Position numbers and translations under genes: made by a program
Notes under the pieces: model-generated
The model's input: only the letters and a program-made list of their open reading frames with translations
What the model was told of the DNA's origin: nothing
The model's database searches: none
In this document: positions 5,608-64,000 of the stretch, one piece after another
Layout of the letters: each line of letters begins with the position of its first letter
Position numbering within the stretch: the stretch's first letter is position 1
Assembly: GCA_965655095.1 (NCBI GenBank)
Contig: OZ296649.1
Coordinates: forward strand, 105,710,001 to 105,774,000
Direction: 5' to 3'
Origin: Haplodiscus bocki
Lineage: Eukaryota
Length of the DNA stretch: 64,000 nucleotides

Positions 5608-5715
5608 CAAAGAAACTTCACCACAAAACACCTTTAAATATATTGACGAAGACACCGTCCTTTATGAGCACTCGTTTAATGAAATTTTTGGATAGCAAAC
5701 AGTTGTGTTTTAATC

Positions 5716-9375: not shown

Positions 9376-9391
9376 GCAGCAGGCTCCTTCG

Positions 9392-10315: not shown

Positions 10316-10317
10316 AA

Positions 10318-12166: not shown

Positions 12167-12179
12167 ATTGCTGCGGAGG

Positions 12180-12655: not shown

Positions 12656-12665
12656 CTTGACTAAT

Positions 12666-13171: not shown

Positions 13172-13222
13172 CTGTAAAAAGACGAGAAAATTTGGAAAAA
13201 TTGCATATGCAATGATGAAATT

Positions 13223-19169: not shown

Positions 19170-19221
19170 AGGTAGCCATGAAGTTGTGCAGCAACCCCCC
19201 CCCCCCCCAACATATACTACT
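19170..19221 (-). repeat. Right terminal inverted repeat ending ...ACTACT
   Basis: Reverse complement begins AGTAGTATATG and matches the left TIR. Confidence 0.92.
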
Positions 19222-20870: not shown

Positions 20871-21826
20871 CTTCAGAATCAGCTTTTTAAAAATATCAGC
20901 CGAATGATATATTATAGCGTTTCTTATTTCGTTTGCGCAGGTATTGCATAGCACAGTTTTGCTTCTGTTTCAAGTCGTTCTTCTCGTAGACTATCAGTTC
21001 GATTGCGGGCCATTCAACGCTCAATTTGAATCCTGAGAAGTAGGATTGCTTTTTTTACTTTTTCGTTTGAAGCATCTATGTAAATTTTGCTCAAATTTTA
21101 CAAGAATGAATTGAGGAAATTTTGTCGGTGGGCTCATATAGCTTCTGCCTTTTTCACTTTCTTGGGAGCTGTGTGCGAAGCGCAGGATCATTTTTCTGTA
21201 TAATATGAAAGTGACTGTCTATGTTGTCTCTAACGTACCGTGGAGTTCTTGTGTTTTTTCTTGTGGCTCGCTTTTTTGTGGCTAATTAATTCAATACACC
21301 TTGTGGCTGCAATTTTTGTTTTCAGAAATTTTGGCAATTTTCCGATGTTTGACTGTATAACTTTATCCGTCTATTTTTGTTGAATATTTGCTCTCTCTCG
21401 ACCGTTGAATTTTCTCTGTATTCAATGTTGACTCTTTTTGTTACTTTTTCGGGTAGTTTGCAGAAAGCCGAAAATTGATCTAAAAAAGTCAATTCAATCG
21501 CTTAGATGTTGGAGCCTCGAGAGGTGCTTATTTTATGATGCGTGCCATAAGAAAATAATCACATTTTTTCCCACGTTGACCGTTTCGAACGCCGTTTCAA
21601 ATTGGGGACGTAACTCTCTCAACCATCGACTCCAAATCGCAACGAAATATGCTTGTGCTCTTATGTCGCGCCTGCGGTGATCAATGTCGCTCTCAATGTG
21701 TCAGTGGTAAACATTTTTGTTACACAATGGAAAATGATTTGGTGTCAGTGCATCCAACTAGATTCATCAGATCTTGCAGAAGCGACGGAACGGGCATTGA
21801 CACTCTTTTCAACGAAGCAACATTTG

Positions 21827-26352: not shown

Positions 26353-26552
26353 NNNNNNNNNNNNNNNNNNNNNNNNNNNNNNNNNNNNNNNNNNNNNNNN
26401 NNNNNNNNNNNNNNNNNNNNNNNNNNNNNNNNNNNNNNNNNNNNNNNNNNNNNNNNNNNNNNNNNNNNNNNNNNNNNNNNNNNNNNNNNNNNNNNNNNNN
26501 NNNNNNNNNNNNNNNNNNNNNNNNNNNNNNNNNNNNNNNNNNNNNNNNNNNN
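26353..26552. other. Assembly gap (200 N)
   Basis: Run of n characters. Confidence 1.
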
Positions 26553-26599
26553 CACCCTTGAGCGACCTCAAACTGAATGGTTTCAAGTAGATGCTGAGC

Positions 26600-29500: not shown

Positions 29501-31600
29501 ATTCATTTCAAATTACTTTTCACGTGAAATTGAAATTGCAGCTTTTCCGGGACTTCACTTTTCGGAGTTCTCGGAATTGTGCTCATTTTTTCCCAATATG
29601 TTTTGTGGACTCCTTCAGACTGGTAGGTCAATTGTTTACGTAAGGACACGGATCTAGAACAACCTCTTGAAGTCAATTTGCGAAAGAAGGGCATTTTCAG
29701 ACGCACTTGTTTCCGTAAATCAAGAGTATTATTTCATTGCTTTCAGTGTAATTTTTCGGCCTTTTGTAAGGCTGTACATCAAAAGTTTAGTTTAGTTCAG
29801 ACGATTAGGAGCATCTTCCTGGTTGGGATTTTCCCAAAGCATGGCGTTTTCTGAAGTGACTTCGGTGCTATATATTAGGAGGCAAACGGTCAATTGTTTT
29901 CCAATATGGCTTCGGGGTTACCAGTATTCGTTAATCTTTTACGTACTTGTTTAGTTGAGGCCGAAGGTGTGGAAAAACTTTTTGAGATGAATCATCAAAA
30001 GCACGGCAGTTTTTGCTTTTCGTCATATAGTAGTCAGTTTTACTTGCTTCAAAAATGCTTCAGAGAATGTACAAGGCTATCCAATAGTTCACTACAATTC
30101 CGGGCACTGAAGCCACCATTTGTCACTGAGTTTGCAAAAACACGACAATTTTAGAGAGTGTTTCGGTTTCATGTAATGTGATACCCACGCTCGGTTGTCT
30201 TCCAATGTAGTTTTAAACTCGTTAAGTCTAATGCTCGAAATTTTTTGTTCGATAATTTAAGTGTCTAAAATCGCGTTTTTGATGTGAATTGGAAAAACAT
30301 TCCGCTTTCCAACAACTCTTTTGTTCATCGACATTAAGCGTTGTGTTTATTTTTCTCAAAAGATGGTTTCCCCACTCCACAAGACTTGTATATCAAATGT
30401 CTGGCTGCTGGTCCAGCTTAATTTTTTGACATGATTTTGCAAAGCAAGACATTTTCCGCCAGACTTTCATTTTTTCCGTTTTATTTATAACGTTTAATCG
30501 TTCCCGATTGAATTTGGGATTTCCTAACTCAATGCAATTTAAGTTTTTTTGAGTTCGAATTTGAATCGTTTTGCAGTTTTTGGACTAGCCCACAACTGTT
30601 TTTTATCAAGTTGAGAGTCGTAAATGCAACTTTTTGATGTGAGTTTATGAAAAAACGGTTATTTCAGAGTCTTTTGGTTTCAGGCGTTCTGACACTAACG
30701 TTTAATTCGTTTCGAATTTGCTTTTGGACTCACCCACACTTGTCCACTAAACAGTTGCTTTTGGTTGGGTAACCCTAATTTCAGTTCGAACTTTTCAAAG
30801 TTTTTGGATTTTGAGCATTGTCAAACTGTCATTTAAATGTTTTGCAGTAGGGTTTTGGACTGGCCGAGTTATGAATCAAATGTTTTAGTGAGGTAGGAGT
30901 TTGAAAACTATCTCTTCTCATGTAAGTTTCCTGAATCACGGCTCTTCAAAATGTCTTTTGGTTTGTTGGCATTGTACGGCTAACGATCAGGTGTTGCAAA
31001 ACGTGGTTTTTGGACTCATTCAGACTTTTTTCCGTCAAAATTTAAATATGGAATGAAAATCATCCACTCAAATCGCTGAAATTGATCGTTTCATGTTTTT
31101 GCCAATTGATAATGTCTGACGTGACGGTAGTGTCCGGTTCTCAGTTTGAATTTTTTTGTCCGTAGAATGCGACTGAGATAGTAAGAAATCTCAAAACGTA
31201 CCAAACTTGGGTTTTTCGAATTAAAGATGTTTTTTTCCCAAAAACTTCTATGATTTCTGCTGTCAATGTAGAAGTTTTTGTCAAATATTGGATAGCTCGC
31301 AAACAGATGTCAAAACTATTCCAGAGAAAATTTGTGGAACAGTCATATTTAAGTGGAAAACTTGCAACATCAACGAATTTTGACAGTTGGTTCACTTACT
31401 GTGTACTTAGTCAACAAAATTCAGTTTCGGTTGAAATTGTACTTTGAACTTTTGATTTAGAAAATTTTCGGTTTGGCAGTCAAAAATTGCATTTAGCTGT
31501 CCAATCTAATTCAGGTTCGCTTTTGTGGTTTTACTTTTCCTTAAGCTGTCAATATACTGCAAAACTTTCTCATTTGTGCAAAAGCTGCCTGAGGAGTCAA
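26600..31600 (+). pseudogene. Heavily decayed leucine-rich-repeat protein gene (mirrored on the minus strand of the left arm)
   Basis: LRR-like fragments: RVLNKSWLSQNFI (28851), REIEIAAFPGLH (29523), DL/NNLLKSICERRAFSD (29651), LQFLD/AHNCF (30571); ~140-bp periodic ttttggact motifs at 30577-31017. Boundaries approximate. Confidence 0.45.
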
Positions 31601-32222
31601 ATTGGCACTACACCCCCCCTTATAATACTACTTATTTTGAAATTGGATCGATTCGAAAGTGAGTCTGTTGTTTTACGAGAAAAAAACCCTGATAGGCGGC
31701 ATCATTGATCGGCGACTAAAATAGAAAACAGAACCCTTAAAGTTTACATCGAATGTCTCACGCGACCCATCGGAAGTAGATACTTCAGTTCTGAGCAATT
31801 CAAACTTTTTTTATCTTTTAATCTGAGATATGTGACTCTAGGGCAGAAACTGTACATAAATAATTTATTTGATTGCCCAATTAACCGATTTGCTGACTGA
31901 CGCCAGTAAACACCATAAGTGTACTTTAATAATTACAGAAAACGCAGTCGCAAGTCCAATAGCGGAGGCCAACAATAGCGGAATACCATGAGCATTCTAT
32001 CCTCATTAGTGAAAAAACGTTGATGAAGCTTGGGAAAATAATATTGATTGACAATTCTAACCCTATTAGCCACTTAATACTGACTTCTAGGATCTTTTCT
32101 GTTACTTCCGCCAGCAGTTGTAGCCACCAGAATTTAACATGCGGAAACAAGTTCTGTGATTGGCTAAAATTCATTCTGCCGTGAGTAATGCTATCCCCCC
32201 TAACAGATGAAATATTGACACC
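27737..32222 (+). repeat. Right arm of the inverted duplication
   Basis: tagttgagagattggcaa...aatattgacacc is the reverse complement of the left arm. Confidence 0.95.
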
Positions 32223-32834
32223 TAAAACACTAAACGGTACCACCTACAAAGTTTTTCGATACTGTGATACTAAATTTTTGACAAAATCGTCATAGCCCCG
32301 CATTGATTCACCAAAAATTTTTAGAAGCCAGAGGGTGTTTCAACACAAAAGTCTCCCCTGTGACAAATTTTTTCACAAAAAAATGATATCTCTTTTATCT
32401 TTTAGGCATACCTTCCCGAAAAACGCTTCTAAAATGTTCAAAATACCCTTCCTACGCGAACACGATTTTCAAAAAACCAAAGTTTTTGCCCCCTCGATAA
32501 TCTGTCACTACTAAATGCACCATTTTTAGCAACTTTTGGTGGAAACGAGTGGTACTAGACTTCCTTTCGGTTTATAGATACTAAAGGGAGAAAAACTTTT
32601 CAATGCATCAAAGCCTCCCCCTTCAAGTATTTTGAGCATTAGGGGCGGCGCTGACTCTGGCCATTCTTCTTGGCTTGCTTCTTCTTTTCAATGCTCATGC
32701 GGGATAATTTAGACGGACTTTAACTTTCCATGAGGAATGGCTTGTAACTGGGTCGGTTGGTTTAGGTTGACATGTGGTTTAACATAGATAGAACTTATGT
32801 ATAACAAAGCTGGTTAACTCTGATTTATTTATAG

Positions 32835-43285: not shown

Positions 43286-43739
43286 AAATGTAAATAACGC
43301 AACAATGCACACTCATTGAAGTTGCATCGATTCAATGAGTCTGTTGTCGAACAAAAAGAAATTTAAAAAGCCACAGTAATAGTCAGCATTCGTACTGAAG
43401 TAAAACGCCGAATAAAAACGCTAATAAAATCTTATGAAAAATCGAAGAAACTTATCCTCCTCCTGTTTTCTCCTAAAATTGTCGTGCTTTGAGAAACTGG
43501 TTTCCTAAATTGCTTAATTTATACTAAGGAGTTCACTTAATCAAAGCAGTACTGTAGAAATTGAATCCTTGGAAGAGATTAAAACTACCTACTAATGTTT
43601 TTGGTAGTGAAAAGTCTCGCTGAGTAAAAAATTGAAGTTAATTTATCCCTCAACTGGACGCTCATCCGGTTGTGTGTAAACTCGCTTTTGCTTCTAGTTG
43701 AAATGTTTTTTAATATCATTGCGACCTTTTGTATTTTAG

Positions 43740-45108
43740 GTCATCTGTGCACGACTTGGCGATGTCCTCAATAGCCAACTTATTCGGAGCATCTCAAAAA
43801 GTTACGACTTTTAATAACATCAATAGACCTTACTGTCCTTCTTCGCTGCGCACTAATGCAAATTACGCGTCATCGGCAATCAATGCAGTTTCTAACTTTG
43901 CCTCTACTCCTTGCGATCAGAGGGCGAACTCAACTTATGCTGCAACGAGACCTATGGGTTTGGGTTTGTCTCATACCGAGCTGAGAGCTCATTTATTCGA
44001 TGACTGTTATTCTCCGCCCATCTATGACGTTCCCCTAGACGAGCCTCTTCAGCAATACTCGCAGTCATGCCACAACTCTCCGCTTCATAAGACCACTTTA
44101 GGAAACAGTCATCCTTATGACCATTTAGTGCCTGAAGCTTTGGCAAACGAACAACTCTTCTCTGGATACAGCCAAGCTTCGCCCATGATAGAAAGTAGCA
44201 GTGATCTCGACAGATCTTCATGCGTATTTCAGGAAGGAAACTCTTGCAACATAGAAAGTAAAAAACCTAAACCGCTTCAAAAACAAGAAAATGTGACCAT
44301 CAATGATATGAATTTCAAAGATTCACTGTCTTCTCGAAACTCCAACAACAGTCTTTTGTCTTCGACGCGACCTTATAAAAAGATGATGAATGGACCGCCT
44401 AGTTCTTCAACTGGACAAGCTTCGGGTATCAGGTCGCAGAATTGCGACTCTAGATGGTCTGCACATAGAAACAGCGGCGGAGTGAGGAGGGAACCCAAAA
44501 GTGTAATACGGGGCAGGGCTTCTAGTTTATCAGACAATGACTGCTTCTCAAGTGACGAAGATGAGCTTCAATGTTATTCACCCGTCTCGAAACAAAGTGC
44601 TACTGAAATGGCAGAATCAAATCCGGATAAAATTGAGAATGATCTGAACCTGTCAAATCTGGCGGCCGAAATCGAAGAAGAGTTTGGGTCTGCAAATAGC
44701 GATCAAAGGGTTGTCTCCGAAGATGAAAAAACATTGGGGTCAGAAGGAAAGTTGCCAGATGAGAATGCAGAAGATCTATGGAAGCAGCAAAATTCGGAAC
44801 GACAATCAAATCGACCCGTTTTTTATGATCGGACAAAACCGGTTGCAAATCAGCTTTCTGCTGTTAGAGAGCCCATTGGTAGCAGGAAAACTTCAGCACC
44901 TAACGAAAGAGACAAAAGTTACCAAAGATCAAAACCATCAGCTATCAAAAAACGGTTTCCTCAGAGGGCTGACTCATACGCAGGGCATGTTTCTCCTATT
45001 TTAGATGACAGGTTTGATAAACGTACGAGTGTCGAAAACGTGAACAGGTCTGCTTTGGGCAATTCTAACAATTCTGATCAATTTTATTATCAAACTACTA
45101 TGGTATAA
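43740..45108 (+). CDS. Terminal coding exon of the PLC-like host gene; Ser-rich disordered tail ending in PDZ-binding motif TTMV
   Basis: Acceptor ttttgtattttag|G; phase matches the donor at 33433 (AG|G = Arg); ~455 codons open without stops. Confidence 0.8.
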
Positions 45109-46380: not shown

Positions 46381-47754
46381 ACCGCCGTGCGGGGGTAAAA
46401 ATTAGTTAGTCCTAGACTGACGTTATTTTTGGTTTTTACTACACTATTAAACATACTCATAAAATATGTAGTATCTTCAGTTTGAATCGATTGTATGGTT
46501 TATCTTCTACAGTTGTTTATTTTTATGCAATAATTGGCTGAAAAAGCAAGCAGCAAACTTTTTAGTTCTTTCAACCTTACAAAACTCCTTTCTGATTAAC
46601 TCCAGTTAAAATTGTGAAATAAATGATTAAAGATTTTGGGCTAGCGAATGATCATCCCCTTAGCACCGCTTATAAAATACATTATTTCGGGGAAAAATTA
46701 TAACATGAATAAAATGGCAGCAATTAAGTCCCGAAATCTCTATGATTTGCATTCCTAAATTGGTTCCGACGATTTTTGCTCATCTGGGTAGAGCATCAAA
46801 TGAATAAGCGCACGTTCCATTTTTGTGATCAATTGTTTCACTTTTATGATTTTCCTATCAAGAAGAATCAATCTGCTTTCAAAATTTGATCACAAACTCA
46901 AATGAGTGGAATTTGTAGCCCCGTTTCATTAACATAACCCCCCGCCCCCAACATTTCTCAAATGTCGGCAACTTTAAGTCGGACCACTTTTCTAATTACA
47001 TTTGTACTCTGGGTAGAAACTTTAGGGTACTGGAAAAATATCTTGGTTCTGGTTTTCGTAGCTGGCGCTATAAGCGTTCCAGGTCATTTTTCGATGTGGT
47101 GAAACCGGTGGAGCGAATGACACCGAGCTTCATTGCAAATGTTCATAAACGAAAAGTATAGAGAAATGGGCGTATAGTAGTATAGTGATTTGTATGGTTT
47201 GCAACTGGTCCCAGGATTTATGCAATCCTTCAATGCGTGAAAATTCACCCCGAGACGCACAGGATACAATTTCAGGTTGTCTGGCTGTGCACATTTCAAG
47301 TGTTTGGTTATATAGCGCACTAGCTGAGGTTACAATGACCCTGTTAACGGGAGCTAAACCACACATCGCGTCCTCACTAACTGCGCTATGTAGCAAAACA
47401 GAAGAACTGTTTATGGTGTTATCAAAACACTAGATACGCAAGCGGCACTGCTATAAAAGAAATAAACTTGAAAAACCACTTGGAGTGGGAAAAGCGGAAA
47501 CACGAAAGATCTTAGGTACTACCTGGAAATATAGAATTTTAGAAAATTACAATTTGTCTGAGACAATTTTGATTCTCGCAAAAAGTGGCTGTCTCAAGTG
47601 AAAGGAATTTCAAGTACCACATATATCGATCAACAACAAGTCAGAGGTTGCTTAACATCATTCTAAGCCGAAACTTTGCGAAATCACGCTCATCTCTCCA
47701 AGTTGATTTAGAAAACTAACCCAGCTTCAAAAAAATCAATCATCTATCACAAAC

Positions 47755-48492
47755 ATGGAAGTGACACTACTTCTGAACGGACGACTTTACAATCTTGAGG
47801 AAAGTCACAACGAAGTGCCAGAGCTGATCACCATCTTAACCGGCGAGGAATCTGATGAAGTCATAGACAATTTCTCGGATGGCCAAGCGAACGCTAAGTC
47901 TGTAAGTACCAATAAATCCATTCTTTTCTGAAAAATTACCAAGAGTGAAATTTTGAACTGGGAGGCGATGGGAGATAACACTGAGGGCAATTAGACACAG
48001 AACTCTCGAAAAGTACTTGCTATTAAAAGAATGAAATTATGTTCTAGGAGAAAACAGAGGAAACTTTGAATTGCAGCCTCTCTACAAAATAAAGAACAAG
48101 GGGAGCCAACCTCGAGTCTGCTAGCAACCGATTGCTACGGCAACCGATGAAGATGGTTTCTACCGCTTTGCCGAAGTTGAAAGGCCGGCGCACAAATGGG
48201 CGGAGGAGGCACCAAAATCGAAGGCACTAGCCCCTAAGCAAATTCTGTCGGTGTCAACGTTACATCAGAACTTGGAGGCGGTTTGCAAACCTTTCGATGG
48301 AAAAAACGCGGGGACAACTGTGGTTCTGAATCCTGCTTCGGCGGATATGGTATACATGCCTACCCCCTTGCTAGAAAAATGCTCCTGATCACCGGCATCA
48401 GAGACTGTGACATCGAAATATATGGGAGAGAAGGTGACCATATCAACATGGCCAAGGCAATTGATGAAGCATTGCGTAACCTCACTTTTTAA
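47755..48492 (+). pseudogene. Highly divergent, intronless ribosomal protein uS5-like gene
   Basis: FELQPLYK...RVC*QPIATATDEDG...FDGKNAGTTVVLNPA/(frameshift)GYGIHAYPLARKMLLITGIRDCDIEIYG...INMAKAIDEAL aligns by eye with uS5 (PVQK..RFKAFVAIGD.NG...GKCGSV.VRLIPAPRGTGIV.APV.KKLL.MAGIDDC....G....NFAKATFDAI). Start uncertain. Confidence 0.65.
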
Positions 48493-49042
48493 ATTGAACT
48501 CTTGATTTATTTTATTTCTGTGTTTCATTTATTGTATTTTTGTAAATAATTCATTTTTTGATGTTGTTTTTCATCCTTCAGAGCTCTCTAGATGAGCATA
48601 AATGGTCATCCTCAGTGATGTGTGCGGAACCCCACACTCTCAGACTATTTCATCCCAGGGGCTCGTATACCGGCTCTGAAAAAAATGAGTGATATGTATG
48701 GCTCGAAATAACTTCCAAATTAAAAGACTTTCAAGATTATTTCCGCAGATAATTTTGAGCTTTTCGATATCGTCTTTTTTCATAGCGATTATTTAACGGT
48801 TTTTTGGGCAGCCTTTTTGTACGGTACTTTTATGACGACCATTTCCATTAGGTCCCTTTTTGACAGCGAAATTTTTGACGGCGTTTTGGGCAGCATTTTT
48901 GTACGGGACTTTTTTGACGAGCATTTCGCGAGACAACGAACAATGTATTGAAAAACTAACAGAGAAGACAGGCAGGATCCCAGAGAAAGTTTAATCACTG
49001 TCGCTAGGTATCAATACAACACGTCCTCGTTTATTTAAAGGC

Positions 49043-52000
49043 TCAAAAAGAAAGCGAGCGAGGTATTTCATCCTGTGAACTATAGTTTTGATTTGCAGAA
49101 TCAGAGTCAAAACTTTCCCATGAACTTTCGACTTCCTCCGCTTCGTCATCAGTTGAAGGATTCTGCCGCCTATGTTGAGAATAGTCTATCATATCTGCAT
49201 CAAAATCCGCTAGACGCTCCAACGCACTTTCTGAAATGATACGTTGATCAAATCCGGCAAAGAAAAAAATTTCATTTGAATAAGGGGACGAGGTGATAAA
49301 CACATCAACTCTGATAGAATCCTCCGCTCCTTCGAAATGCATTGAAGAAGGCACTGTTGCTGGTACACGTTGAAATGTCTGATAAATCTTGGCTAATTCG
49401 ACGACGAAATATTAGAATTCTTCGTCAAAGTTTCCTCCGGCTCACCGAATTCACCGGAGTCATTTTCCTCCGCAACGGCTCTCAAAACCGGGATATCACG
49501 AATTTCGAAATGTCCAAAAGGCAAACAACTTATTCCATCATCTAGACTGAATTTTTTATCATCGAAGGCAGATATGGAGATTTTATTGTTTTGGATTATA
49601 TTGAGATCATGTTTCACCGAGCCTATTCTGACATTAACTGAGCGCACGACAGCTCCCTTGTTCAAAATTAATTTGTACATCTGACGAATTGAGGAAGTTA
49701 GCAAAGTGGCAAACACTTTTGGTTGACATTTTTTGCTTGTCTTTATCAACTATACACTACATCTTTGCTTTCAAACTAACAAACCGCCTAAAAACGCTTT
49801 CACATCTCATCCGTAAAGTTTCTGCTGATCATTTTTTTGTGGAGTAATTAAGAGGATGATTAGCAGGGTTGTTTGAAAAAAAAATTAAATTGTTTCGAAA
49901 AGTCGTGTCCCATGACTCTGTAAAATTCTCGCGCTGTATCTCATGGAGCGGAGAATCAGGCAGAGAAAGTTTTCAAACGCAGCTTTCATCACGTACCGAA
50001 ACAAAAAGAACGATTAAGAAAAAATACCACTCTTACAAAATGATTGCGAAGAAACATTCCGATACCATTGATTGCAAGAAAGATACAAATTTTAGTTTTT
50101 TTAGAAGAAACTAAAGGAAACTGACTTCAATGGAAGTAGATGTGATACTTTGCGAAGTCCAAAACACAAGCACGGTCAATAGTTGGGGTGCCCAGAAATT
50201 GTGGCCTTTGCGAGGAGTAATAGTGACGAGATTTTCACAATTTTAAACGGATTTAACAAGACTTTTTTCTGAGTTTCCAAAACTCGTTCTCGAGTTCGTT
50301 GTAACTTGACGTCAACTTGGTTGCATTTTTTCGAGTTTTTCCGTAGCAAGGAAAATTCATCATTTTGTAGAATGATTCTTGAATTTTTTTTTGATTTTGA
50401 GCACATTTCGGTATTCAAAGTTATATACAGTTTCATCCATTTATCTTGGGTAAATATTGAGATACGATAAACTTGAGAAACTTTCATTCCAACTGTTACA
50501 TACTACTTTAGGGTGTCTGATGTACAGTAAAATTTTTCTGGCTCAATGTATTCACAAGTTTATTTGACCGACATTCGTTTTTCCCATGTTTTTTAAAAGC
50601 GACAACTGAGGATCAGAGAGCATTTCGTCATCATTTTTCTCTTTTCTCGGCACTGAGAGAAAGTTCATGTAAACTATGGAGAGAATCGGGAAACTTAATC
50701 AACTGCGAGGAAAGCCAGCGGTAAGATCATTTGAGGTGTTCAAGATTGGGTCCAACAACATTTTGTAAGCCAGATAAAATTTTTGTCAATGGTAGAGGAA
50801 AATTCTCCATATCCCCACCATATAAGTTGTTGCCGTCTACCATTAGACCGATATTTTTACCTTTCATTTAGTCAAAAGTTCTAAATCGTTATTCTTTGTG
50901 GCAGGTAGTTTGGAGAGATAAAAGCAACGCCACCTGTGATGAAATTTTTGGCAATTTTTCGATATTATCGATCTGTAAGAAGCTGCACATAAGCAATATT
51001 AACTTTAAAAGATCAATCGCCAGCGAGATGAGAACATGTGTAATAATGTGCACTGTCTAATCAATAAAATGAGTAGGTAATTTTCCGGAATGACTGAAAA
51101 ACAAGCCAACACGAGAGTATCTGTCAAGAGGTAGAGTTTATGATATTCTCCAAGTTTTCACATTTAAACGCATCAAACACTTTCTGCGCGTGGAGAAGAT
51201 TGAGGTGATTGACACTTTCCCACTTTGCAGAGCTGAAAAACTGACGATGAAATGGCAGTGGCCCAAAACTTTTTCAATTTCTGCCATTGGAAAGTCACAC
51301 AGACAGCACAAGGAGCTATCAAGCAATGGATCGAAATTTTTGAAGATTGCATAATGTTCCAAAGTATCTACAAATGTTTCCATACAGTTTTCCGATCGCT
51401 CAATCTTTACGAACGCCGGTTTTGGATTGTCGAGTTCAATAACTTCTGAACAAAAACCACACGGCTGACGAAATTGAATAACCTCTGATCAGCTGTAGTT
51501 GACGTTGTTTTGGCAAGAGGCTTTATCAAGGATTTAAAATCAATTTAACTCACGAAAGATGCGTACCGTTTCGACTCTTTGATGAATTCAAAACTTTTCA
51601 TTATTTGGCTTTTCGATATGGCGTTGGTAAATTTCTTCACGTGAGCAAATGTGGAAGTACTTCCGCAACATTCAACATGGAGCGGAGAACTTGCTGTCTT
51701 TTCCTACTAACAAAATTTAGAGACCTTTAATAAGAAAACAAACAATGATGAGTTTGTCCATCAGTGAGGAGAAGCAGACCTTTTGTAAACCGGCAGTTTT
51801 TTTTGAGAGAATAGGAGGTATCAAGCAATTGTCTTGGAACAAAAAAAACGCTTGAACTTTGTCAGTTCTTCGAATCTTGGTAAACTGTTGAAACCTATAT
51901 GCATTACAAACTCTCCCACCGGTTCACGGGCTAACAAATTTTAAGCTTTTCATATGTTGGGACTGGAGCGCAAACGCATAGAGTCATTTTCGTGGAGACT

Positions 52001-52900
52001 CTGTCCAAATTTAAACTGCCAAGCAGCCATGAAACAATATAAGAAACAATCATTGTCACCGCGTTTTCTGATGCTGAGGAGACAATTCAAATTTTCGGTA
52101 AATGACGTAATGATCTCATTTCAACTCCGTCCATTTTCTGCAATCTTAACCCACTTCCCTTAAAAGTGAAAGTGAATCAATTTGACATCATCTGATCAAA
52201 CGATCATGAGAAAAGTTTCTTCTGAAAAACGTTCACCACGCAAAACCATTTCCATTTCGGAGTTGACGTAACTAGTTAGCTCTTTTGCGTCTTGTTCATC
52301 AACGCAGGCTTTTCACCTACAAAACTGGAGGAGAGATGATTTTCGAGGCTAAGCATTGACGCTTTCATCAACATCTTCATTCACGAAGGGATTCACTTGT
52401 ACGACCTTAAATTGTAGGAAGTCAAGATGATCTTTAGACTACCGGAAAAAAGATTGAACTGATCCGATTAGAGCAGTATCGTTAGATTGTTAGGTTTTTG
52501 TTCCGGAAGCTTTTGAGAACTGGACACAGAAGGTGAAGAATGAACATGTTCAAGGTGTTCATTGGATTTTGAGAAAGATAAAATTTATTGCATTAGAGGC
52601 AGAAATTGGCTTGCTCAGTTTTATGCATTTCTTGTTCATGTTATTCCTTGAGGTATCAAAAAGAGCTTTTGATATCACATCCAGTGGATTTTTTCTGCAT
52701 GTTTCAGGTACTTGTGGATATGCCTCAAGTGACGATTGAGACTTTGAAGGTTTGGGAACGATTTTTCGCTTAACTTGCAGGTATAAAATTATGATGGCCA
52801 TTTGGTCACCAGAAAAATAAAGATTGCAAGATTTTCAGTCGAACAAAATTTTGTTTACAAGCTCCTATCATGAAGGAAGCTCACAATGTTTTACAGAACG
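49043..52900 (-). pseudogene. Second Polinton pPolB (different family, more decayed)
   Basis: NKISISAFDDKKFSLDDGISCLPFGH C-terminus, MVDGNNLYGG motif A (~50815-50845), CCLCD...LGHCH EndoVII, KGSGL domain, zinc-finger remnants near 52700-52800. Confidence 0.9.
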
Positions 52901-55900
52901 TTTAGGGCTTCGTACAGATAACACGTGCTATCTACGCTAATCTCAAGTTTCAAAAATATGACTAGGCAGCGCTGTCGGCGCAACTTTAAACTCGGGAGCG
53001 TACAGCTACTGTTTTATCAAGTCCATTTGTCCTACAGGAGGTTTTAGTCGAGTGTAACAAACCTGGTTTTTCTTGCATAAAAGCAAGAACGTGACAACGC
53101 ACGTGCCTTTTGTCTAGGCAAAACAAATAAAACAATGGACAAAATTAGCTGAAATCCATGAAAAAAGACCTCGCTCAAGGGTAATTTTTGATAACAAAAC
53201 GCTTTTCACAAAATAATTCTAACTTCCCTGGATGAGCTGTCGGTTCCAGGCCAAAAAAAATAAATTGATTCAAGAGTGAAACATATCAACATCAACCCAA
53301 AAAAAAAACAAAATATTAAGTACGGAGATGTCTTGTTAAAAAAACAATACCAAATAGGAGGAATCTGAATTCTCCAAACTGTATTGAGAAAACGTATCCG
53401 GTTAGACTGATTTACAAGCCAGTCTCAAGGATCACATGATCTTTTTTTTGAGACGAGAAGAATAATCAACCAATTTTTTTGGAACATGAAAACACTCGCT
53501 TGTGTTTTGTTTAGTTTTTCGAATCTTGCTACCTCGTTGAACCCCATAGGTAATACAAAATCCCCCATCGATTGACGAGCCAATAGATTTGAAGGCGTAT
53601 GTATGTAACGGCTAGTGCACAAAAGCCAGGTTTCTTTTTCATGGAGACTGTCGATATTTGAAGTGCCAAGTAGTTATGAAACAATATAAAAAGCAATTTT
53701 TGTCATCAACTTTGATGTTGAGGAACAATTCAAACTTCTCTCTAGGGCTGATGGTAGAGCTGAGTAGGACGATCCCATTATCGGCAAATGACAAAATGAT
53801 CGCATTCCAACTCCGTCCACTTTCTGCAAAATCAACCCACTTCCTTTAAAAGTGAAAGTGAATCAAATTGACAGCATCTGATCAAGCAATCGTGAGAAAA
53901 ATTTCTTCTGAAAGACCTTCACCAAGCAAAACCATTTCCATTTCGGAGTTGACGTAACTAGTTAATTCTTTTGCGTCTTGTTCATCAACGCAGGCTTTTC
54001 GAATATAAAACTGGGGGAGAGTTGATTTTTTCGAGGCTAAGCATTGACGTTTTCATTAAAATCTTCATACACGAAGGGATTCATTTGTAAGACCTTAAAT
54101 TGTAGGAACTCAAAATGATCTTTAGAATTCCGGAAGAAAGATTGAACTGTTCTGTTTAGAACAAGCCTGTTAGATTTTTGCTCAGGAAGGTTTCGAGAAC
54201 TGGACACAGAAGGTGAAGATTGAACATCTTCAAGGTGTTCATTGGATTTTGAGAGAAAGATGAAAAATTTTTGCAATAGAAGCAGAAATTTGCTTGGTCA
54301 GTTTTATGCAATTCTTGTATATGTTATTTCTTGAGGTATCAAAAAGATCTTTTGATATCACATCCAGCACATTTTTTCTGCATGTTTAAGGTACCGTCTT
54401 TGTGGATATGCCTCGAGTGACGTTTGAGGTTTTGATGGTTTGCGAAAGACTTTTCGCTTAACTTGCAAGTATAAAATTATGATGGCCAGTTGGTCACCAG
54501 AAAAATAAAGATTGCAAGATTATCAGTCCAACAAAATTTTGTTTACAAGCTCTTATCATAAAGGAAGCTCGCAATGTTTTACAGAACGTTTACGGCTTCG
54601 CAAAGATAAAACCTGCTATCTACGCTAATCTCAAGTTTCAAAAATATGATTAGGCAGCGCTGTTGGCGCAACTCTAAACGGGGGAGCTTACAAGTACTGT
54701 TTTATCTAGGCCATTTACCCAACAGGATGTATTAGTCGAGTGTAACAAACCGGGTTTTTCTTAGATAAAAGCAAAAACGTGACAACGCACGCGCCCTTTT
54801 GTCTAGACAAATCAAATGAAACCGAATGGAAAAAATTAGCTGAAATCCAGGAAAGAAGACCTCCCTTCAGGGTAATTTTTGATAACAAAACGCTAATCAC
54901 AAAAAAAACTTCTAAATTCCTTGGATGAGCTGTCGATTCCCCAACAAACATAATAAACTGCTTCAAAAGTAAAACTTCAACATGATCCCAGAAAAACAAA
55001 ATATTAGGTACGGAGATGTCTTGCTTAAAAAACAATCCCAAATAGGAGGAATCTGAATTCTCCAAACTGTATTGAGAAAAAGTATCCGGTTAAACTGAAT
55101 AACAAGCCAGTCTCAAGGATCAGATGATCTTTTTTCGAGACGAGAAGAATAATCAACCAATTGTTTTGGAACATGAAAACACTCGATTGTGTTTTGTTCA
55201 GTTTTTCGAATCTTGGCAGCTCAATGAACCCCATAGGCAATACAATATCGCCCACCGATTGATGAGCCAATAGATTCGAAGGCTTATGTATGTAGGGGCT
55301 AGTGCACAAACGCCAGGATTCTTTTTCTTGGAGACTGTCCATATTTGAAGTGCCAAGTAGTTATGAAACAATATAAAAAACCAATTTTTATCATCAACTT
55401 TGATGTTGAGGAGACAATTCAAACTTCTTTGTAGGGCTGATGGTAGAGCTAAGTAGGACGATCCCACTATTGGCAAATGACAAAATGATCGCATTCCAAT
55501 TCCGTCCATTTTCTGCAATATCAACCCACTTCCTTTAAAAGTGAAAGTGAATCAAATTGACAGCTTCTGATCAAGCAATCGTGAGAAAAAGTTCTCAAAG
55601 ACTTTCACCATGCAAAACCATTTCCAATTCGGAGTTGACGTAACTAGTTGATTCTTTTGCGTCTTGTTCATCAACGCAGGCTTTTCGACCATAAAACTGG
55701 AGGAAAGTTGATTTTTTCGAGGCTAAGCATTGACGCTTTCATTAACATCGTCATTCACGAAGGGGATTCAATTTACGACCTTAAATGGTAGGAAGTCAAA
55801 ATGATCTTTAAATTATCGGAAGAAAGATTGAATTGCTACGTTTAGAACAGGATTGTTAGGCTTTTGTTCAAGAAGGTTTCGAGAACTGGACACAGAAATT

Positions 55901-58900
55901 GAAGAATCAACTTCTTCAAGGTGTTCATTAGATTTTGAGAGAAAGATAAAATTTTTTGCAATGGAGGCAGAATTTTGCTTGCTCAGTTTCAGACCTCGCT
56001 CAACGGCAATTTTTAATAAAAAAACGCTAATCACAGAAAAAAATTCTGAATTCCCTGGATGAGCTGTCGGTTCCACGCCAAACAAAATAAATTGATTTAT
56101 TAGCAAAACATATCAACATCATCCCAGAAAAACAAAAATTTAAGTCCGGAGATGTCTTGCTCAAAAAAACAATCCCAAATAGGAGGAATCTGAATTCTCC
56201 AAACTGTATTGAGAAAACGTATCCGGTTAAACTGAATAACAAGCCAGTCTCAAGGATCAGATGATCTTTTTTTGACACGAGAAGAATAATCAACCAATTG
56301 TTTTGGAACATGAAAACACTCGCTTGTGTTTTGTTTAGTTTTGCGAATCCTGCTACCTCGTTGAAACCCATAGGCAATACAAAATCCCCCAACGATTGAT
56401 GAGCCAATAGATTCGATGGCTTATGTATGTAGGGGCTAGTGCACAAACGCCAGGATTCTTTCTCATGGAGACTGTCCATATTTGAAGTGCCAAGTAGTTA
56501 TGAAACAATATAAAAAACCAGTTTTTGTCATCAACTTTGATGTTGAGAAGACAATTCAAACTCCTTTGTAGGGCTGATGGTAGAGCTAAGTAGGACGATC
56601 CCATTATCGGCAAATGACAAGATGATCGCATTTCAACTCCGTCCATTTTCTGCAGAGTCAACCCACTTCCTTTAAAAGTGAAAGTGAATCAAATTGACAG
56701 AATCTGATCAAGCAATCGTGAGAAAAATTTCTTCTGAAAGACTTTCAGCATGCAAAACCATTTCCATTTCGGAATTGACGTAACTAGTTAATTCTTTTGC
56801 GTCTTGTCCATCAACGCAGGCTTTTCGACTACAAAACTGGAGGAGAGTTGATTTTTTTTGAAGCTAAGCATTGAAGTTTTCATGAACATCCTCATTCACG
56901 AAGGGATTCACTTGTCCGACCTTAAATTGTAGGAAGTCAAAATGATCTTTGGATTACCGGAAGAAAGATTGAATTGCTCCGTTCAGAACAGGATTGTTAG
57001 GTTTTTGTTCATGAAGGTTTCCAGAACTGGACACAGAACTTGAAGAATCAACATCTTCAAGGTGTTCATTGGATTTTGAGAGAAAGATGAAATTTTTTGC
57101 AATGGAGGCAGAACTTTGCTTGCTCAGTTTCAGACCTCGCTCAAGGGTAGTTTTTAATAACGAAACGCTAATCACAGAAAAAAATTCTGAATTCCCTGGA
57201 TGAGCTGTCGGTTCCACGCCAAACAAAATAAATTGATTTTTTAGTAAAACATATCAATATCATCCCAGAAAAACAAAAATTTAAGTATGGAGATGTCTTG
57301 CTCAAAAAAAACAATCCCAAATAGGAGGAATCTGAATTCTCCAAACTGTATTGAGAAGAAGTATCCGGTTAAACTGAATAACAAACCAGTCACAAAGATC
57401 AGATGATCTTTTTTGAGACGAGAAGAAGAATCAACCAATTGTTTTGGAAAATGAAAACATTACCTTGTTTAGTTTTTCGAATCTTGCTATCACGTTAAAA
57501 CCCATAGGCATTACAAAGTCTCCCGCCGATTGATGAGCCAATAGATTTGAAGGTTTATATATGAAAGGGCTAGTGCACAAACGCCAGGTATATTTTTCAT
57601 GGAGACTGTCCATATTTGAAGTGCCAAGCAGTTATGAAACAATATAAAATGCCCTTTTTTTCATCAAGTTTGATGTTGAGGAGACAATTCAAACATTGTA
57701 GTGCTGATGGTAGAGCTAAGTAGGACGATCCCATGATCGGCCAATGACAAAATGATCGCATTTCAACTCCATCCATTTTCTGCAAAATCAACCCACTTCC
57801 TTTAAAAGTGAAAGTGAATCAAATTGACAGCATCTGATCAAGCAATCGTGAGAAAAATTTCTTCTGAAAGACCTTCACCAAGCAAAACCATTTCCATTTC
57901 GGAGTTGACGTAACTAGTTAATTCTTTTGCGTCTTGTTCATCAACGCAGGCTTTTCGAATATAAAACTGGGGGAGAGTTGATTTTTTCGAGGCTAAGCAT
58001 TGACGTTTTCATTAAAATCTTCATACACGAAGGGATTCATTTGTAAGACCTTAAATTGTAGGAACTCAAAATGATCTTTAGATTACCGGTAGAAAGATTG
58101 AACTGTTCTGTTTAGAACAAGCTTGTTAGATTTTTGCTCAGGAAGGTTTCGAGAACTGGACACAGAAGTTGAAGAATGAACATCTTGAAGGTGTTCATTG
58201 GATTTTGAGAGAAATATAAAAATTTTTGCATGGGAGGCAGAATTTTGCTTGCTCAGTTTCATGCAATTCTTGTATATGTTATTTATTGAGTTATCAAGAA
58301 GAGCTTTTGATATCACATCCAGTGCATTTTTTCCGCATGTTTAAGGTATCGTCTTTGTGGATATGCCTCAAGTGACGTTTGAGATTTTGAAGGTTTGCGA
58401 AAGACTTTTCGCTCAACTTGCAAGTATAATTTTCTCATGGCCAGTTGGGCACCAGAAAAAAAAATTGCAAGATTTTCAGTCGAACGAAATTTTGTTTTCA
58501 ATCTCTTATCATGAAGGAAGCTCACAATGTTTTACAGAACGTTTACAGCTTCGTAAAGATAACACGTGCTACGTACGCTATTCTCAAATTTCAACAATAT
58601 GATAAGGCAGCGCTGTCGGCGCAACTTTAAACTCGGCAGCGTACAGCTACTGTTTTATCAAGGCCATTTATCCAACAGGAGGTATTAGCCGAAAGTAACA
58701 AACCTGGTTTTTTTAGATAAAAGCAAGAATGTGACAACGCACGTGCCCTTTGTCTAGGCAAAACAAATAAAACCTAATGGACAAAAGTAGCTGAAATCCA
58801 GGAAAAAAGACCTCGCTCAAGGGTAATATTTAATAGCAAAACGCTAATCACAGAAAAAAATTCCCTATTTCCCTGGATGAGCTGTCGGTTCCACGCCAAA

Positions 58901-61900
58901 CAAAATAAATTGATTCAATAGTAAAACATATCAACATCATCCCAGAAAAACAAAAATTTAAGTACGGAGATGTCTTGCTCAAAAAAACAGTCCCAAATAG
59001 GAGGAATCTGAATTCTCCAAACTGCATCGAGAATATATATCCGGTTAATCTGTATAACGAGTCAGTCTCAAGTACCAGATGATCTTTTTTTTTGAGACGA
59101 GAAAAAGAATAAACCAATTGTTTTGGAACATGAGAACATTACCTTGTTTAGTTTTTCGAATCTTGCTGTCACGTTAAAAGCCATAGGCATTACAAAGTCT
59201 CCCGCCGATTGATGAGCCAATAGATTCGAAGGTTTATATATGAAATGGCAAGTGCACAAAGGCCAGGTACCTTTTTCATGGAGACTGTCCATATTTGAAG
59301 TGCCCAGCAGTTATGAAACAATATAAAAAGCAATTACTGTCATCAAGATTTTTAATGTTGAGGAGACAATTCATTTTTTGAAGGTCTGATGATAGAGCTA
59401 AGTAGGACGATCCCATGATCCGCAAATGACAAAATGATCGCATTTCAACTCCGTCCACTTTTTGCAATATCAATTCACTTCCTTTAAAAGTGACATTGAA
59501 TCAACTTGACACCATCTGATCAAGAATCGTGAGAAATTTTTCTTCTGAAAGACTTTCACCATGCAAAACCATTTCCATTTCGGAGTTGACGTAACTAGTT
59601 AATTCTTTTGCGTCTTGTTCATAAACGCAGGCTTTTCGAATACAAAACTGGAGGAGAGTTGATTTTTTTGAAGCTAAGCATTGAAGTTTTCATGAACATC
59701 CTCATTCACGAAGGGATTCACTTGTGCGACCTTAAATTGTAGGAAGTCAAAATGATCTTTGGATTACCGGGAGAAAGATTGAACTGTTCCATTTAGAGCA
59801 GGATTGTTAGGTTTTTGTTCAGGAAGGTTTCGAGAACTGGACAAAGAAGGTGAAGAATGAACATCTTCAAAGTGTTCATTGGATTTTGAGAGAAAGATAA
59901 AATTTAGTGCAATAGAGGCAGAATTTTGCTTGCTCAGTTTTCTGCAGTTCTTGTATATGTTATTTCTTGAGGTTTCAAGAAGAGCTTTTGATGTCACGTC
60001 GAGTGCATTTTTTCAGAGTGTTTAAGGTATCATCTTTGTGGATATGCCTCAAGTGACGATTGAGATTTTGAAGGTTTGCGAACGACTTTCGGCTCAACTT
60101 CTAAGTATAATTTTAGGATGGCCAGTTGGTCACCAGAAAAATAAAGGTTGCAGGATTCTCAGTTGAACAAAATTTTGTTTACAAGCTCTTATCATGAAGG
60201 AAGCTCACAATTTTCTACAGAACGCTTACGGCGTCGCAAAGATAACACGTGCTATCTACACTAATTTCAGGTATCAAAAAAAAACGATTAGACAGCGCTG
60301 TCGGCGCAACCTTAAACGCGGGAGCGTACAACTACTGTTTTGTCTAGGCCATTTATCTAACAGCAGATAATGGTCGACTGTAACAAACATTGTTTGTCAT
60401 AGATAAAAGCAAGAAAGTGACAACGCACGTGGCCTTTGTGTAGACAAAATAAATAAAACGGAATAGACAAACTTAGCTGAATGTCAGGAAAAAAGACCTA
60501 CGTCAAGGGTAATTTTCAAAAACTAAATGTTAATCACAGAAAAAAATTTATAGTCTCTGGATGAGCTGTCGATCCCAAGCCAAACAAAATAAATTGATTC
60601 AGTAGTAAAACATATCAACATCATCCCAGAAAAACAAAAATTTAAGTACGGAGATGTCTTGCTCAAAAAAAAATCCCAAACAGGAAGAATTTGAGTTCTC
60701 CAAATTGCATTGAGAAGAAGTATCCGGCTACAGTGAATAACAAGTCAGTCGCAGAGATCAAATGATTTTTTTTGAGACGAGAAGAGGAATCAACCAATTG
60801 TTTTGGAACATGAGAACTTCGCTTTAGTCTTGTTTAGTTTTTCGAATCCTGTAATCTCGTTGAAACCCATAGGCATTACAAAATCTCCCACCGGTTGATG
60901 AGCCAAAAGACTCGAAGGTTTATTTATCTAAGGGCTAATGCACAAACGCCAGGTGTTTCTTTTGATGGAGACTCCATATTTGAAGTGCCAAACAGTTATG
61001 AAACAATATAAAAAGCAGTTTTTGTCATCATGTTTTTGGATGTTGAGGAGACAATTCAAATTTTGTAGGGTTGATGGTAGAGCTGAGAAGGACGACCCCT
61101 TGACCGGCAAATGACAAAATGATCGCATTTTAACTCCATCCATTTTCTGCAATCTTAACCCACTTCCCTGAAAAGTGAAAGTCAATCAACTTGACATCAT
61201 CTGATCAAGCGATCGTGAGAAAAATTTCTTCTGAAAGACTTCTACAATGCAGAACTTTTTCCATTTCGGAGTTGACGTAACTAGTTAGCTTTTTTTCGTC
61301 TTGTTCAACAACGCAGTCTTTTGGACTACAAAACTGGAGGAGGGTTGATTTTTTCGAGGCTGAGCATTGACGCTTTCATTAACATCTTCATTCACGAAGG
61401 GATTCATCTGTACGACCTCAAATTGTAGGAAGCCAAAATGACCTTTAGATTACAGGAAGAAAGATTAAACTGTTCCGTTTAGAGCAAGATTGTTAGGTTT
61501 TTGTTCGGGAAGGTTTCGAGAACTGGACACAGAAGGTGAAGAATGAACATCTTCAAGGTGTTCATTGCATTTTGAGGGAAAGATAAATTTTAGTGCAAAA
61601 GAGGCAGAAGTTTGCTGGCTTAGTTTTATGCATTTTTTGTATATGTTAGTTCTTGAGGTTTCAAGAAGAGCTTTTGATATCACATCGAGTGCATTTTTTC
61701 TGCATGTTTAAGGTATCAACTTTGTGGATAGGCCTAAAGTGACGATTGAGATTTTGGAGGTTTGAGAACGCCTTTTCGCTTGAGTTGCAAATATAAATAA
61801 ATGATGGCCAATTGGTCATTAAAAAAACTGTAGGATTCTCAGTCGAACAAAATTTTTTTTACAAGCTATTATCATGAAGGAAGCTCATATTTTTTTTACA

Positions 61901-64000
61901 GAACGTTCACGGCGTCGTAAATGTAACACGTGCTATCTACGCAAATCTGAAGTATCGGAAAAATGATTAGGCAGCGCTGTCGGCGCAACATTAAACGCGA
62001 GAGCGTACAACTACTATTTTGTGTAGGCCTTTTTTCCAACAGCAGTTTATAGTCGAGTGTAACAAACTTGGTTTTTCCTAGATAAAAACAAGAACGTGAC
62101 AACGCACGTGCCCTTTGTCTAGTCAAAATCAATAAAACGGAATAGACAAATTTTATCGGGAAGCCAAGAAAAAAGACCTTCGTCAAAAGTAATATTTAGT
62201 AACAAAACGCTAATCACAGAAAAAAAATTATATTCTCTGTTTGAGCTGTCCATCCCACGCCAAAGAAAAAAAATTGATTCACGAAAAAATATATCAATAT
62301 CATCCGAGCGAGAGATACAAAATTTTAGGTACGGAGATGTTCTCCCTAAAAAAACAATCCTAAATAGAAGGAATTTGAGTTCTCCAAATTGCATTGAGAA
62401 GAAGTATCCGGCTAAACTGAAAAACAAGTCAGTCTCAACGATCAAATGATTTCTTTTTTGAGACGAGAAGAGGAATCAACTAATTGTTTTGGAACATGAG
62501 AAATCGCTGGAGTCTTGTTTAGTTTTTCGAATCCTGCAATCTCGTTGAAACACATAGGCATTACAAAGTCTCCCACCGGTTGATGAGCCAAAAGATTCGA
62601 AGGTTTATTTATCTAAGGGCTAATGCACAAACGCCAGGTGTTTCTTTTGATGGAGACTCCATATTTGAAGTGCCAAACAGTTATGAAACAATATAAAAAG
62701 CAGTTTTTGTCATCATGTTTTTGGATGTTGAGGAGACAATTCAAATTTTGTAGGGTTGATGGTAGAGCTGAGAAGGACGACCCCTTGACCGGCAAATGAC
62801 AAAATGATCGCATTTTAACTCCATCCATTTTCTGCAATCTTAACCCACTTCCCTGAAAAGTGAAAGTCAATCAACTTGACATCATCTGATCAAGCGATCG
62901 TGAGAAAAATTTCTTCTGAAAGACTTCTACAATGCAGAACTTTTTCCATTTCGGAGTTGACGTAACTAGTTAGCTTTTTTTCGTCTTGTTCAACAACGCA
63001 GTCTTTTGGACTACAAAACTGGAGGAGGGTTGATTTTTTCGAGGCTGAGCATTGACGCTTTCATTAACATCTTCATTCACGAAGGGATTCATCTGTACGA
63101 CCTCAAATTGTAGGAAGCCAAAATGACCTTTAGATTACAGGAAGAAAGATTAAACTGTTCCGTTTAGAGCAAGATTGTTAGGTTTTTGTTCGGGAAGGTT
63201 TCGAGAACTGGACACAGAAGGTGAAGAATGAACATCTTCAAGGTGTTCATTGCATTTTGAGGGAAAGATAAATTTTAGTGCAAAAGAGGCAGAAGTTTGC
63301 TGGCTTAGTTTTATGCATTTTTTGTATATGTTAGTTCTTGAGGTTTCAAGAAGAGCTTTTGATATCACATCGAGTGCATTTTTTCTGCATGTTTAAGGTA
63401 TCAACTTTGTGGATAGGCCTAAAATGACGATTGAGATTTTGGAGGTTTGAGAACGCCTTTTCGCTTGAGTTGCAAATATAAATAAATGATGGCCAATTGG
63501 TCATTAAAAAAACTGTAGGATTCTCAGTCGAACAAAATTTTTTTTACAAGCTATTATCATGAAGGAAGCTCATATTTTTTTACAGAACGTTCACGGCGTC
63601 GTAAATGTAACACGTGCTATCTACGCAAATCTGAAGTATCGGAAAAATGATTAGGCAGCGCTGTCGGCGCAACATTAAACGCGAGAGCGTACAACTACTA
63701 TTTTGTGTAGGCCTTTTTTCCAACAGCAGTTTATAGTCGAGTGTAACAAACTTGGTTTTTCCTAGATAAAAACAAGAACGTGACAACGCACGTGCCCTTT
63801 GTCTAGTCAAAATCAATAAAACGGAATAGACAAATTTTATCGGGAAGCCAAGAAAAAAGACCTTCGTCAAAAGTAATATTTAGTAACAAAACGCTAATCA
63901 CAGAAAAAAAAATTATATTCTCTGTTTGAGCTGTCCATCCCACGCCAAAGAAAAAAAATTGATTCACGAAAAAATATATCAATATCATCCGAGCGAGAGA
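51790..64000 (-). repeat. Tandem array of at least 8 copies of the pPolB 5' region (unit ~1685 bp; two ~1135-bp deletion variants)
   Basis: Marker acccacttcc..aaaagtg at 52149, 53835, 55524, 56661, 57791, 59473, 61158, 62843 (spacings 1686, 1689, 1137, 1130, 1682, 1685, 1685); continues past the window end. Confidence 0.95.

Follow-up and report, generated by a model that had tools for sequence, protein, structure and literature searches.

The window, by which we mean the whole 64,000-nucleotide stretch analysed, is G000:C2:105,710,001-105,774,000 in a genome of 1.5 Gb. It contains a copy of a gene derived from the ribosomal protein uS5 (47755..48492, + strand), which lies a short way inward from the left TIR of a Polinton and is convergent with the polymerase gene pPolB. 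The features of this element are as follows.

47176..47241, + strand: left TIR of the Polinton, 66 bp, starting AGTAGT; 83–92% identical to the far-end TIRs of six related elements
47755..47901, + strand: predicted exon 1, 49 codons, acidic, with an ATG and an in-frame GT donor
47902..48047, + strand: predicted phase-0 GT–AG intron, 146 nt, from the alignment of 13 copies
48048..48492, + strand: exon 2, the uS5 two-domain core, pseudogenised; identified by Pfam, a Polinton-uS5 profile and trees
48590..48930, no strand assigned: region from uS5 to pPolB, made up of the conserved downstream segment and a decayed repeat spacer; from blastn to relatives
49043..52516, − strand: pPolB pseudogene, convergent with uS5; six pieces found by tblastn with a young pPolB, 33–57% identity
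51797..64000, − strand: tandem array of the 5′ part of the window pPolB, period ~1685 bp, running past the window

An initial annotation of this DNA reported no TIR; the left TIR is nevertheless present at 47176, the position at which similarity among relatives of the element starts. The 60 kb beyond the window yielded no matching right TIR for this copy, because the 5′ part of pPolB has been amplified into the array (26 unit matches across the window and the next 60 kb), and no retroviral-like integrase was found for the window's own copy. The uS5 stop codon (48490–48492) and the convergent pPolB stop (49043–49045) are separated by 550 bp, as the initial annotation had estimated. In the young element L132 the spacer between the two genes holds a 27-bp repeat in 42 copies (L132:7111–8251, TRF), which is open in several frames on both strands; TRF finds no such repeat in the window. 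Assembly gaps lie directly past pPolB in two other element copies.

Tandem arrays of Polinton fragments recur in the assembly (window 51797–64000, C1:78.23–78.30 Mb, C7:38.83–38.90 Mb, C2:36.55–36.58 Mb and C6:2.24–2.31 Mb), and uS5 is present in four of them. The window and C1 arrays have a common period of ~1685 bp, yet comprise different parts of the element, with units unmatched by blastn. The window also holds a separate Polinton of another family (4066–19202), with 60-bp imperfect TIRs (77% complementary) and ATPase, integrase, capsid-like, protease-like and pPolB genes; no uS5 was detectable in it by searches that included the Polinton-uS5 profile. Directly to the left of its TIR is a 175-bp tandem duplication (3661–4005, 98%). 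A long inverted repeat at 21823–32226, with arms of ~4.5 kb that are 92–99% complementary and a gap of 200 N (26353–26552) between them, may be a foldback element or an assembly artefact. A serine-rich ORF of 464 codons (43714–45108, + strand) has no Pfam match; it was considered as part of the uS5 Polinton and dropped, as it lies outside the TIR.

Identity, structure and decay of the uS5 gene

The Ribosomal_S5_C model (PF03719) matches residues 197–243 of the window frame with 26.6 bits, against a cut-off of 21.5. For the window frames themselves, the profile check proposed in the initial annotation was borne out for the C-terminal domain: the broken window frames alone miss the threshold of the N-domain model Ribosomal_S5 (PF00333), and their best match in a PDB search has E=0.35. 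In a young relative of the gene both domains pass (PF00333, 28.9 bits versus 27.1; PF03719, 37.8 versus 21.5), and when a profile was made from the uS5 proteins of other Polintons, with the window copy left out, it matched the window at 48071–48346 (36.9 bits) and 48343–48486 (31.0 bits). The uS5 motifs DEDG, GK, VVLNPA, GYGIHA, GIRDC and NMAKAIDEAL are spread over two frames; five occur as the initial annotation wrote them, and the sixth is one residue longer than stated there.

That annotation described an intronless, lightly disrupted uS5-like gene spanning 47755..48492. The assignment to uS5 stands on the profiles, with the core starting at about 48048 rather than at 47755, and 'intronless' is probably wrong. 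Among 13 aligned copies (the window and 12 relatives), a GT donor at 47902 is in register in 12, and the TAG acceptor at 48045–48047 is in register in 8, with an AG one base off in 3 more. The interval between them is the most diverged part of the gene in this alignment and has no codon pattern (divergence of 0.29, 0.30 and 0.31 at the three codon positions). The corresponding values are 0.23, 0.23 and 0.29 in exon 1, 0.25, 0.22 and 0.27 in the first part of exon 2 and a flat 0.24, 0.24 and 0.25 in its last part. Given the conserved donor and acceptor and the flat, high divergence, we read 47902–48047 as a phase-0 intron, predicted to separate the acidic exon 1 from the uS5 core. The TAG at 48045, once counted as a lesion, was dropped from that list, being common to the relatives and likely to be the splice acceptor.

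A similar acidic peptide ending at an in-frame GTAAGT donor occurs in the I and J lineages, and the acidic first exon is found in the W/I/J allele group; alleles A, B, D and E have a Met start at the core, and in allele C the first exon is probably very short. Window exon 1 contains a hydrophobic-then-acidic stretch, matched by a regular expression, that resembles a SUMO-interacting motif (SIM-like). The window copy is dead. Its core is broken by a stop at 48122 and by two frameshifts, one near 48069 and the other near 48341, so that 'lightly disrupted' describes the core well enough; it describes less well a copy as old as this one, which is 68–82% identical to its 12 nearest relatives.

Linkage to Polintons across the genome

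Genome searches returned at least 40 DNA matches, at least 93 PF03719 matches and at least 150 and at least 136 protein matches, counts that are inflated by arrays. With arrays and duplicates collapsed, three cellular loci removed and lower-ranked matches left out, the retrieved loci comprise 49 sites of the type found in the window (type 1). A Polinton terminus or pPolB adjoins 48 of the 49; the remaining site (L014) has the conserved downstream segment only. Complete elements are ~15.6–19.3 kb in length and carry the uS5 gene between paired TIRs. After the first TIR come uS5, the repeat spacer, pPolB and two unknown ORFs, then the protease-like, major-capsid-like and penton-like genes, and finally integrase, ATPase, a further unknown ORF and the second TIR. 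Among 13 TIR pairs, 6-bp TSDs are perfect in 7, agree at 5 of 6 bases in 3 and are unrecognisable in 3. The co-occurrence with pPolB inside TIRs that the initial annotation had put forward as a check was thus found, in complete elements bounded by TSDs.

In relatives, pPolB (PF03175, 54.2 bits) and, in a complete element, the integrase (PF00665, 34.8 bits) score above the Pfam cut-offs, and the ATPase falls just under (Pox_A32, 20.8 bits versus 22.8). The protease-like gene is so called because it resembles an ORF that itself matches Peptidase_C5 weakly; the major and minor (penton-like) capsid genes, which have no Pfam match, are presumed to be such from motifs and gene order. The N terminus of pPolB has three C2H2 zinc-finger-like units. 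In all four young copies (L067, L071, L132 and L136) pPolB is divided, at one common position, between a long ORF and a short one, which suggests an intron or programmed recoding, and the C terminus of the L132 protein has, after a basic NLS-like run, a hydrophobic-then-acidic stretch that resembles a SUMO-interacting motif. A 2.4-kb mini-element (L129, G000 C6:88,601,818–88,604,222) is bounded by a TIR at either end and has a 6-bp TSD; it carries an open uS5 frame of allele B and is without core genes.

Ten further elements were sampled by capsid similarity: five of a related family (G) with intact arms, two of other families and three gapped or truncated. No uS5 was detected in any of the ten, the three gapped or truncated ones included, and the terminal arms of all five G-family elements are without it. 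Related Polintons persist without uS5, and the gene is therefore dispensable. In one element of the uS5-less family (L233), the terminal arm encodes, ~250–750 bp inside the TIR, Cys-rich repeats that we take to be like LDL-receptor class A modules.

Contigs from four sequencing runs cross the host RPS2 intron unspliced; these runs are therefore DNA and uninformative on expression. In them, 17–19 contigs on the B arm continue into different flanks at the TIR end.

Origin and relatives

All 27 type-1 rows, including the window, fall into one clade (support 97). This clade lies on the eukaryotic cytosolic side, apart from bacterial-type uS5 (SH-aLRT 98), in a tree in which 8 bacterial rows stand in for the mitochondrial type and no full uS5m row is included. 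The best 60 PDB matches of Polinton uS5 are all eukaryotic 40S chains. A second, more distant uS5 type, found through database proteins, has 6 sites in this genome, of which 4 are convergent with pPolB, one follows other Polinton genes and one is without a marker. In an archaea-rooted tree the two types join each other (99/96), with cellular eukaryotic uS5 as their sister, a position that could be a long-branch effect. Grouping of Polinton uS5 with the canonical RPS2 of acoels was rejected (AU p=0.016); grouping with an acoel RPS2 paralogue was not (p=0.17). The comparison with host uS5 proposed in the initial annotation thus gave a single cytosolic-side clade that does not nest in canonical RPS2. 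An archaeal origin was also considered and dropped, as the GSW and TVPF motifs look convergent in the trees.

The canonical host RPS2 (L031), in which one intron was seen, is 90% identical to database protein P0010, whose cluster includes the uS5 of Convolutriloba macropyga, which makes an acoel a likely host; an exon elsewhere in the host genome (L032) is, we presume, MRPS5-like. A divergent, intron-bearing cellular RPS2 paralogue (L033, G000 C2:105.18 Mb) is 66% identical to database protein P0164, and its lineage is a candidate donor of the Polinton gene.

Some database relatives are without a close match in this genome (P0154, at most 40%; P0292, at most 39%), which implies that the Polinton uS5 family is not limited to this assembly. 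Other divergent uS5 proteins occur in multiple copies on long ENA contigs (P0157/P0215 and the clusters of P0183 and P0320–P0328); since P0157 and P0292 fall with the Polinton clade in the tree, these may represent further element-borne families. Pattern searches, which reach close relatives only, found no relative in IMG/VR (with four queries for uS5 and one for a capsid protein), in JGI metagenomes (one query) or among INPHARED phages (one query). Among the viral structures of BFVD there was no uS5-like fold match at E≤0.001, and a search of Rfam gave no match.

Protein fold and retained residues

The model of a young allele (pLDDT 82.9) has a TM score of 0.82–0.83 to eukaryotic 40S uS5, with an rmsd of 1.4–1.6 Å over 158 columns, and the Polinton protein is predicted to have the two-domain uS5 fold; the alignment used for the model included host RPS2, so the predicted fold is not independent of the homology. 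The alleles are basic (pI 9.0–11.6) and are without the eukaryote-specific N-terminal region (76 residues) and C-terminal tail: none of 21 Polinton rows has more than two identities to host residues 1–75 or more than one to the C-tail, and the DNA upstream of the core in the alleles examined holds no exon for an N-terminal extension. In host uS5, residues 1–75 contain the PDCD2/Tsr4 site and the RG region methylated by PRMT3 (PMC10216425), and the yeast N-terminal segment binds a chaperone needed for efficient incorporation (PMC10377357).

We counted a core position as eukaryote-invariant when 90% or more of the cellular eukaryotic rows agree at it. Across the 21 Polinton rows, 25 of these are kept, among them structural Gly, Pro and Ala residues, K83, R96, R98, W145 and K186, and 27 are lost, including Q90, Q95, E121, V122, K134, R141, Y144 and H153. 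An R-x-R strand is retained, with host R96 in 14 of 19 rows and R98 in 16 of 19. These correspond to yeast R95 and R97, which with K99 form an internal import signal (PMC10377357); the K99 position is K or R in 11 of the 19.

Resemblance to cellular eukaryotic uS5/RPS2 covers both domains, the predicted fold, the R-x-R strand and the PAP-G-G and G-x-x-D motifs. The Polinton protein differs in having no RG-rich or FxxxFG N terminus, no W-x-P-x-T-K-L-G helical region and no C-tail, in its diverged entry-channel hairpin and helix surfaces, and, in some alleles, in loop insertions.

Selection and exchange of alleles

Codon models gave an omega of 0.083–0.098 for four young rows and 0.23–0.25 for 15 rows, values that are rough since uS5 synonymous sites are saturated. 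In all seven bootstrapped between-allele pairs pS exceeds pN with intervals above zero, whereas this holds in neither of the two bootstrapped within-allele pairs of old copies. Within alleles, the dN/dS of old copies is 0.83–1.15 in five pairs and 0.60 and 0.32 in two others. Judged by these ratios, old copies within an allele decay neutrally, and the comparisons between alleles show divergence under purifying selection; young copies of three alleles have open frames. The dN/dS analysis proposed in the initial annotation thus pointed to constraint. That annotation inferred a long-diverged uS5 homologue carried by a Polinton, and the gene indeed lies inside elements with TIRs and TSDs, forms one clade and has evolved under purifying selection. 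We consider it highly probable that the uS5-derived gene is functional Polinton cargo.

The young elements A, B and C have core proteins that are mostly 93–99% identical and uS5 proteins that are only 38–40% identical. Five core genes have a dS of 0.055–0.078, whereas uS5 synonymous sites are saturated (pS 0.82); the uS5 alleles must thus be much more ancient than the backbones on which they sit. In a quick pPolB tree, 17 of 17 type-1 carriers fall into one clade (SH-aLRT 99), with A, B and C almost identical. A and B have matching DNA in their first 279 bp (88%); the similarity then stops and resumes at about base 1500. The uS5-side TIR of B elements differs from the far TIR (59–60 of 66 bases agree), whereas the TIRs of A elements agree (65 of 66). 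The simplest reading of old alleles on young backbones, as we infer it, is exchange of terminal arms. An ancestral Polinton would long ago have captured a cytosolic uS5 gene; the terminal arm, comprising the TIR and uS5, would since have been swapped by recombination between about base 280 and the repeat spacer; and the alleles may have persisted through conflict with the host or between elements.

Possible functions

Our preferred explanation, which we put forward tentatively as a real but unsettled prospect, is that the Polinton protein is a nuclear, extra-ribosomal decoy of host uS5. A basic, tail-less protein would enter the nucleus by means of the retained internal import strand. Having no chaperone or methylation sites, it would compete for the uS5 site on pre-40S rRNA or for partners that bind uS5, and this competition might damp or redirect the host supply of 40S subunits while the element replicates. 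The retention of the R-x-R import determinants together with loss of the PDCD2/Tsr4 and PRMT3 regions, the C-tail and the 27 invariant core positions speaks for such a decoy, as does the basic pI, and the acidic SIM-like exon of the W/I/J alleles would fit a nuclear role. Against it, the same conserved residues suit any RNA-binding role, the gene is dispensable in that related Polintons persist without it, and bacterial uS5 is also without the tails and yet functions in ribosomes (PMC10216425).

A wider proposal is possible, although doubtful as a whole: that a lineage of integrating animal DNA viruses has made of a core 40S protein a hypervariable effector, acting at the mRNA entry channel by entering the host's small subunit or blocking it, with an ancient pool of alleles kept by swapping of terminal arms, as at a receptor-binding or incompatibility locus. 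If true, this would be the first ribosome-targeting arms-race gene in a Polinton.

The protein might instead replace host uS5 in the 40S subunit and shift start-site choice or decoding accuracy towards element mRNAs. Both domains and the geometry between them are predicted to be intact, and uS5, which forms part of the wall of the mRNA entry channel, has an effect on fidelity (PMC10216425). Mistranslation increases when human A226 is exchanged for a bulky residue, and V, I or T stands at the equivalent position in 19 of the 20 Polinton rows; however, bacterial rows often have I or V there too. The phage proteins bS21 and bL12 enter ribosomes (PMC6375957), and a customisation of this kind has been proposed for bS21. 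We nevertheless think replacement unlikely: the Polinton protein has other residues at 27 eukaryote-invariant core positions, it is without the C-tail and without the N-terminal part through which, in yeast, a chaperone is recruited for efficient incorporation (PMC10377357), and the known viral ribosomal proteins are late-binding and exchangeable (PMC6375957, PMC11499249).

Equally, we would not expect the protein to be a general binder of double-stranded or structured RNA that shields element transcripts, such as those of the convergent uS5 and pPolB genes, from small-RNA silencing, with no link to the ribosome. The uS5 N-domain is dsRBD-like (PMC10216425), the protein has a basic pI and kept arginines, uS5 and pPolB are convergent, and tolerance of 60% divergence agrees with binding that is independent of sequence. 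However, the C-terminal S5 domain, needless in a plain double-stranded RNA binder, is conserved as strongly as the N-domain, and viral structures in BFVD offer no uS5-like fold at the threshold given above.

Binding to the N-terminal C2H2 zinc fingers of pPolB, as host uS5 binds PRMT3 and ZNF277, would make the protein a partner of the replicase. The three zinc-finger-like units with which pPolB starts, and the need of PRMT3 and ZNF277 for their zinc fingers in uS5 binding (PMC10216425), make this conceivable, but it is very improbable, because fingers that are 93–100% identical accompany alleles that are only 38–40% identical and because Polintons without uS5 carry the fingers too. That the gene is a neutral passenger, a hitch-hiking host RPS2 retrocopy or pseudogene without function, can hardly be maintained: most of the old copies, like the one in the window, are indeed broken, old copies have within-allele dN/dS of 0.8–1.15 and some Polintons are without uS5, but three alleles have young open frames, pS far exceeds pN between alleles (omega ~0.1), splice sites are conserved and there is no nesting with host RPS2 (AU p=0.016).

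Significance and comparison with known systems

Ribosomal proteins are rare in eukaryotic viruses, being known from a few giant viruses (eL40 and S27a) and, as an antisense fragment, from one retrovirus. With a uS5 under selection in a small animal virus that integrates, the range of viral ribosomal proteins would come to include a core 40S protein, and their carriers Polintons. The allele series, at ~40% identity with the same predicted fold, is material for asking which surfaces of uS5 matter off the ribosome, which bears on the biology of PRMT3, ZNF277 and PDCD2, and the probable swapping of arms would display Polinton recombination directly in an animal germline.

Among the top-ranked papers of our literature searches, which covered few subscription papers, none describes a Polinton with a ribosomal protein or a eukaryotic virus with uS5. 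The main texts searched mention no ribosomal protein among Polinton/Maverick accessory genes, and PMC12849515 has no match to antiviral terms. Supplementary Table 2 of PMC6375957 comprises ten further phage ribosomal proteins, which could include uS5, and a review in J Virol refers to several ribosomal protein homologues in giant viruses.

The elements resemble Polintons/Mavericks (Polintoviricetes; adintovirus-like, PMC8502044), with pPolB, an rve integrase, an A32-like ATPase, capsid-like and protease-like genes, AGT-type TIRs and 6-bp TSDs. Virus-encoded ribosomal proteins include phage bS21 and bL12 (PMC6375957), giant-virus eL40 (PMC11499249) and eL40 and S27a (PMC13595923), and the antisense eS30 of FBR murine sarcoma virus. 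Polinton uS5 is like them in being a host-derived gene in a viral genome under purifying selection. It differs in that the protein, uS5, is large and belongs to the core of the 40S body, that its carrier is an integrating animal virus of 15–19 kb, and that it shares only ~35–45% identity with the host's own protein, has lost the tails and occurs as many exchanged alleles. A parallel in layout is the cargo of nematode Mavericks (WASP proteases as well as KRMA kinases; 10.1101/2022.07.12.499685), which likewise occupies a variable slot of low conservation by one TIR and consists of host-derived, sometimes intron-bearing genes, with a modularity ascribed there to recombination between elements. 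Here, by contrast, the slot lies beside the 3′ end of pPolB and is filled by diverged alleles of one gene, which encodes a protein of the translation machinery.
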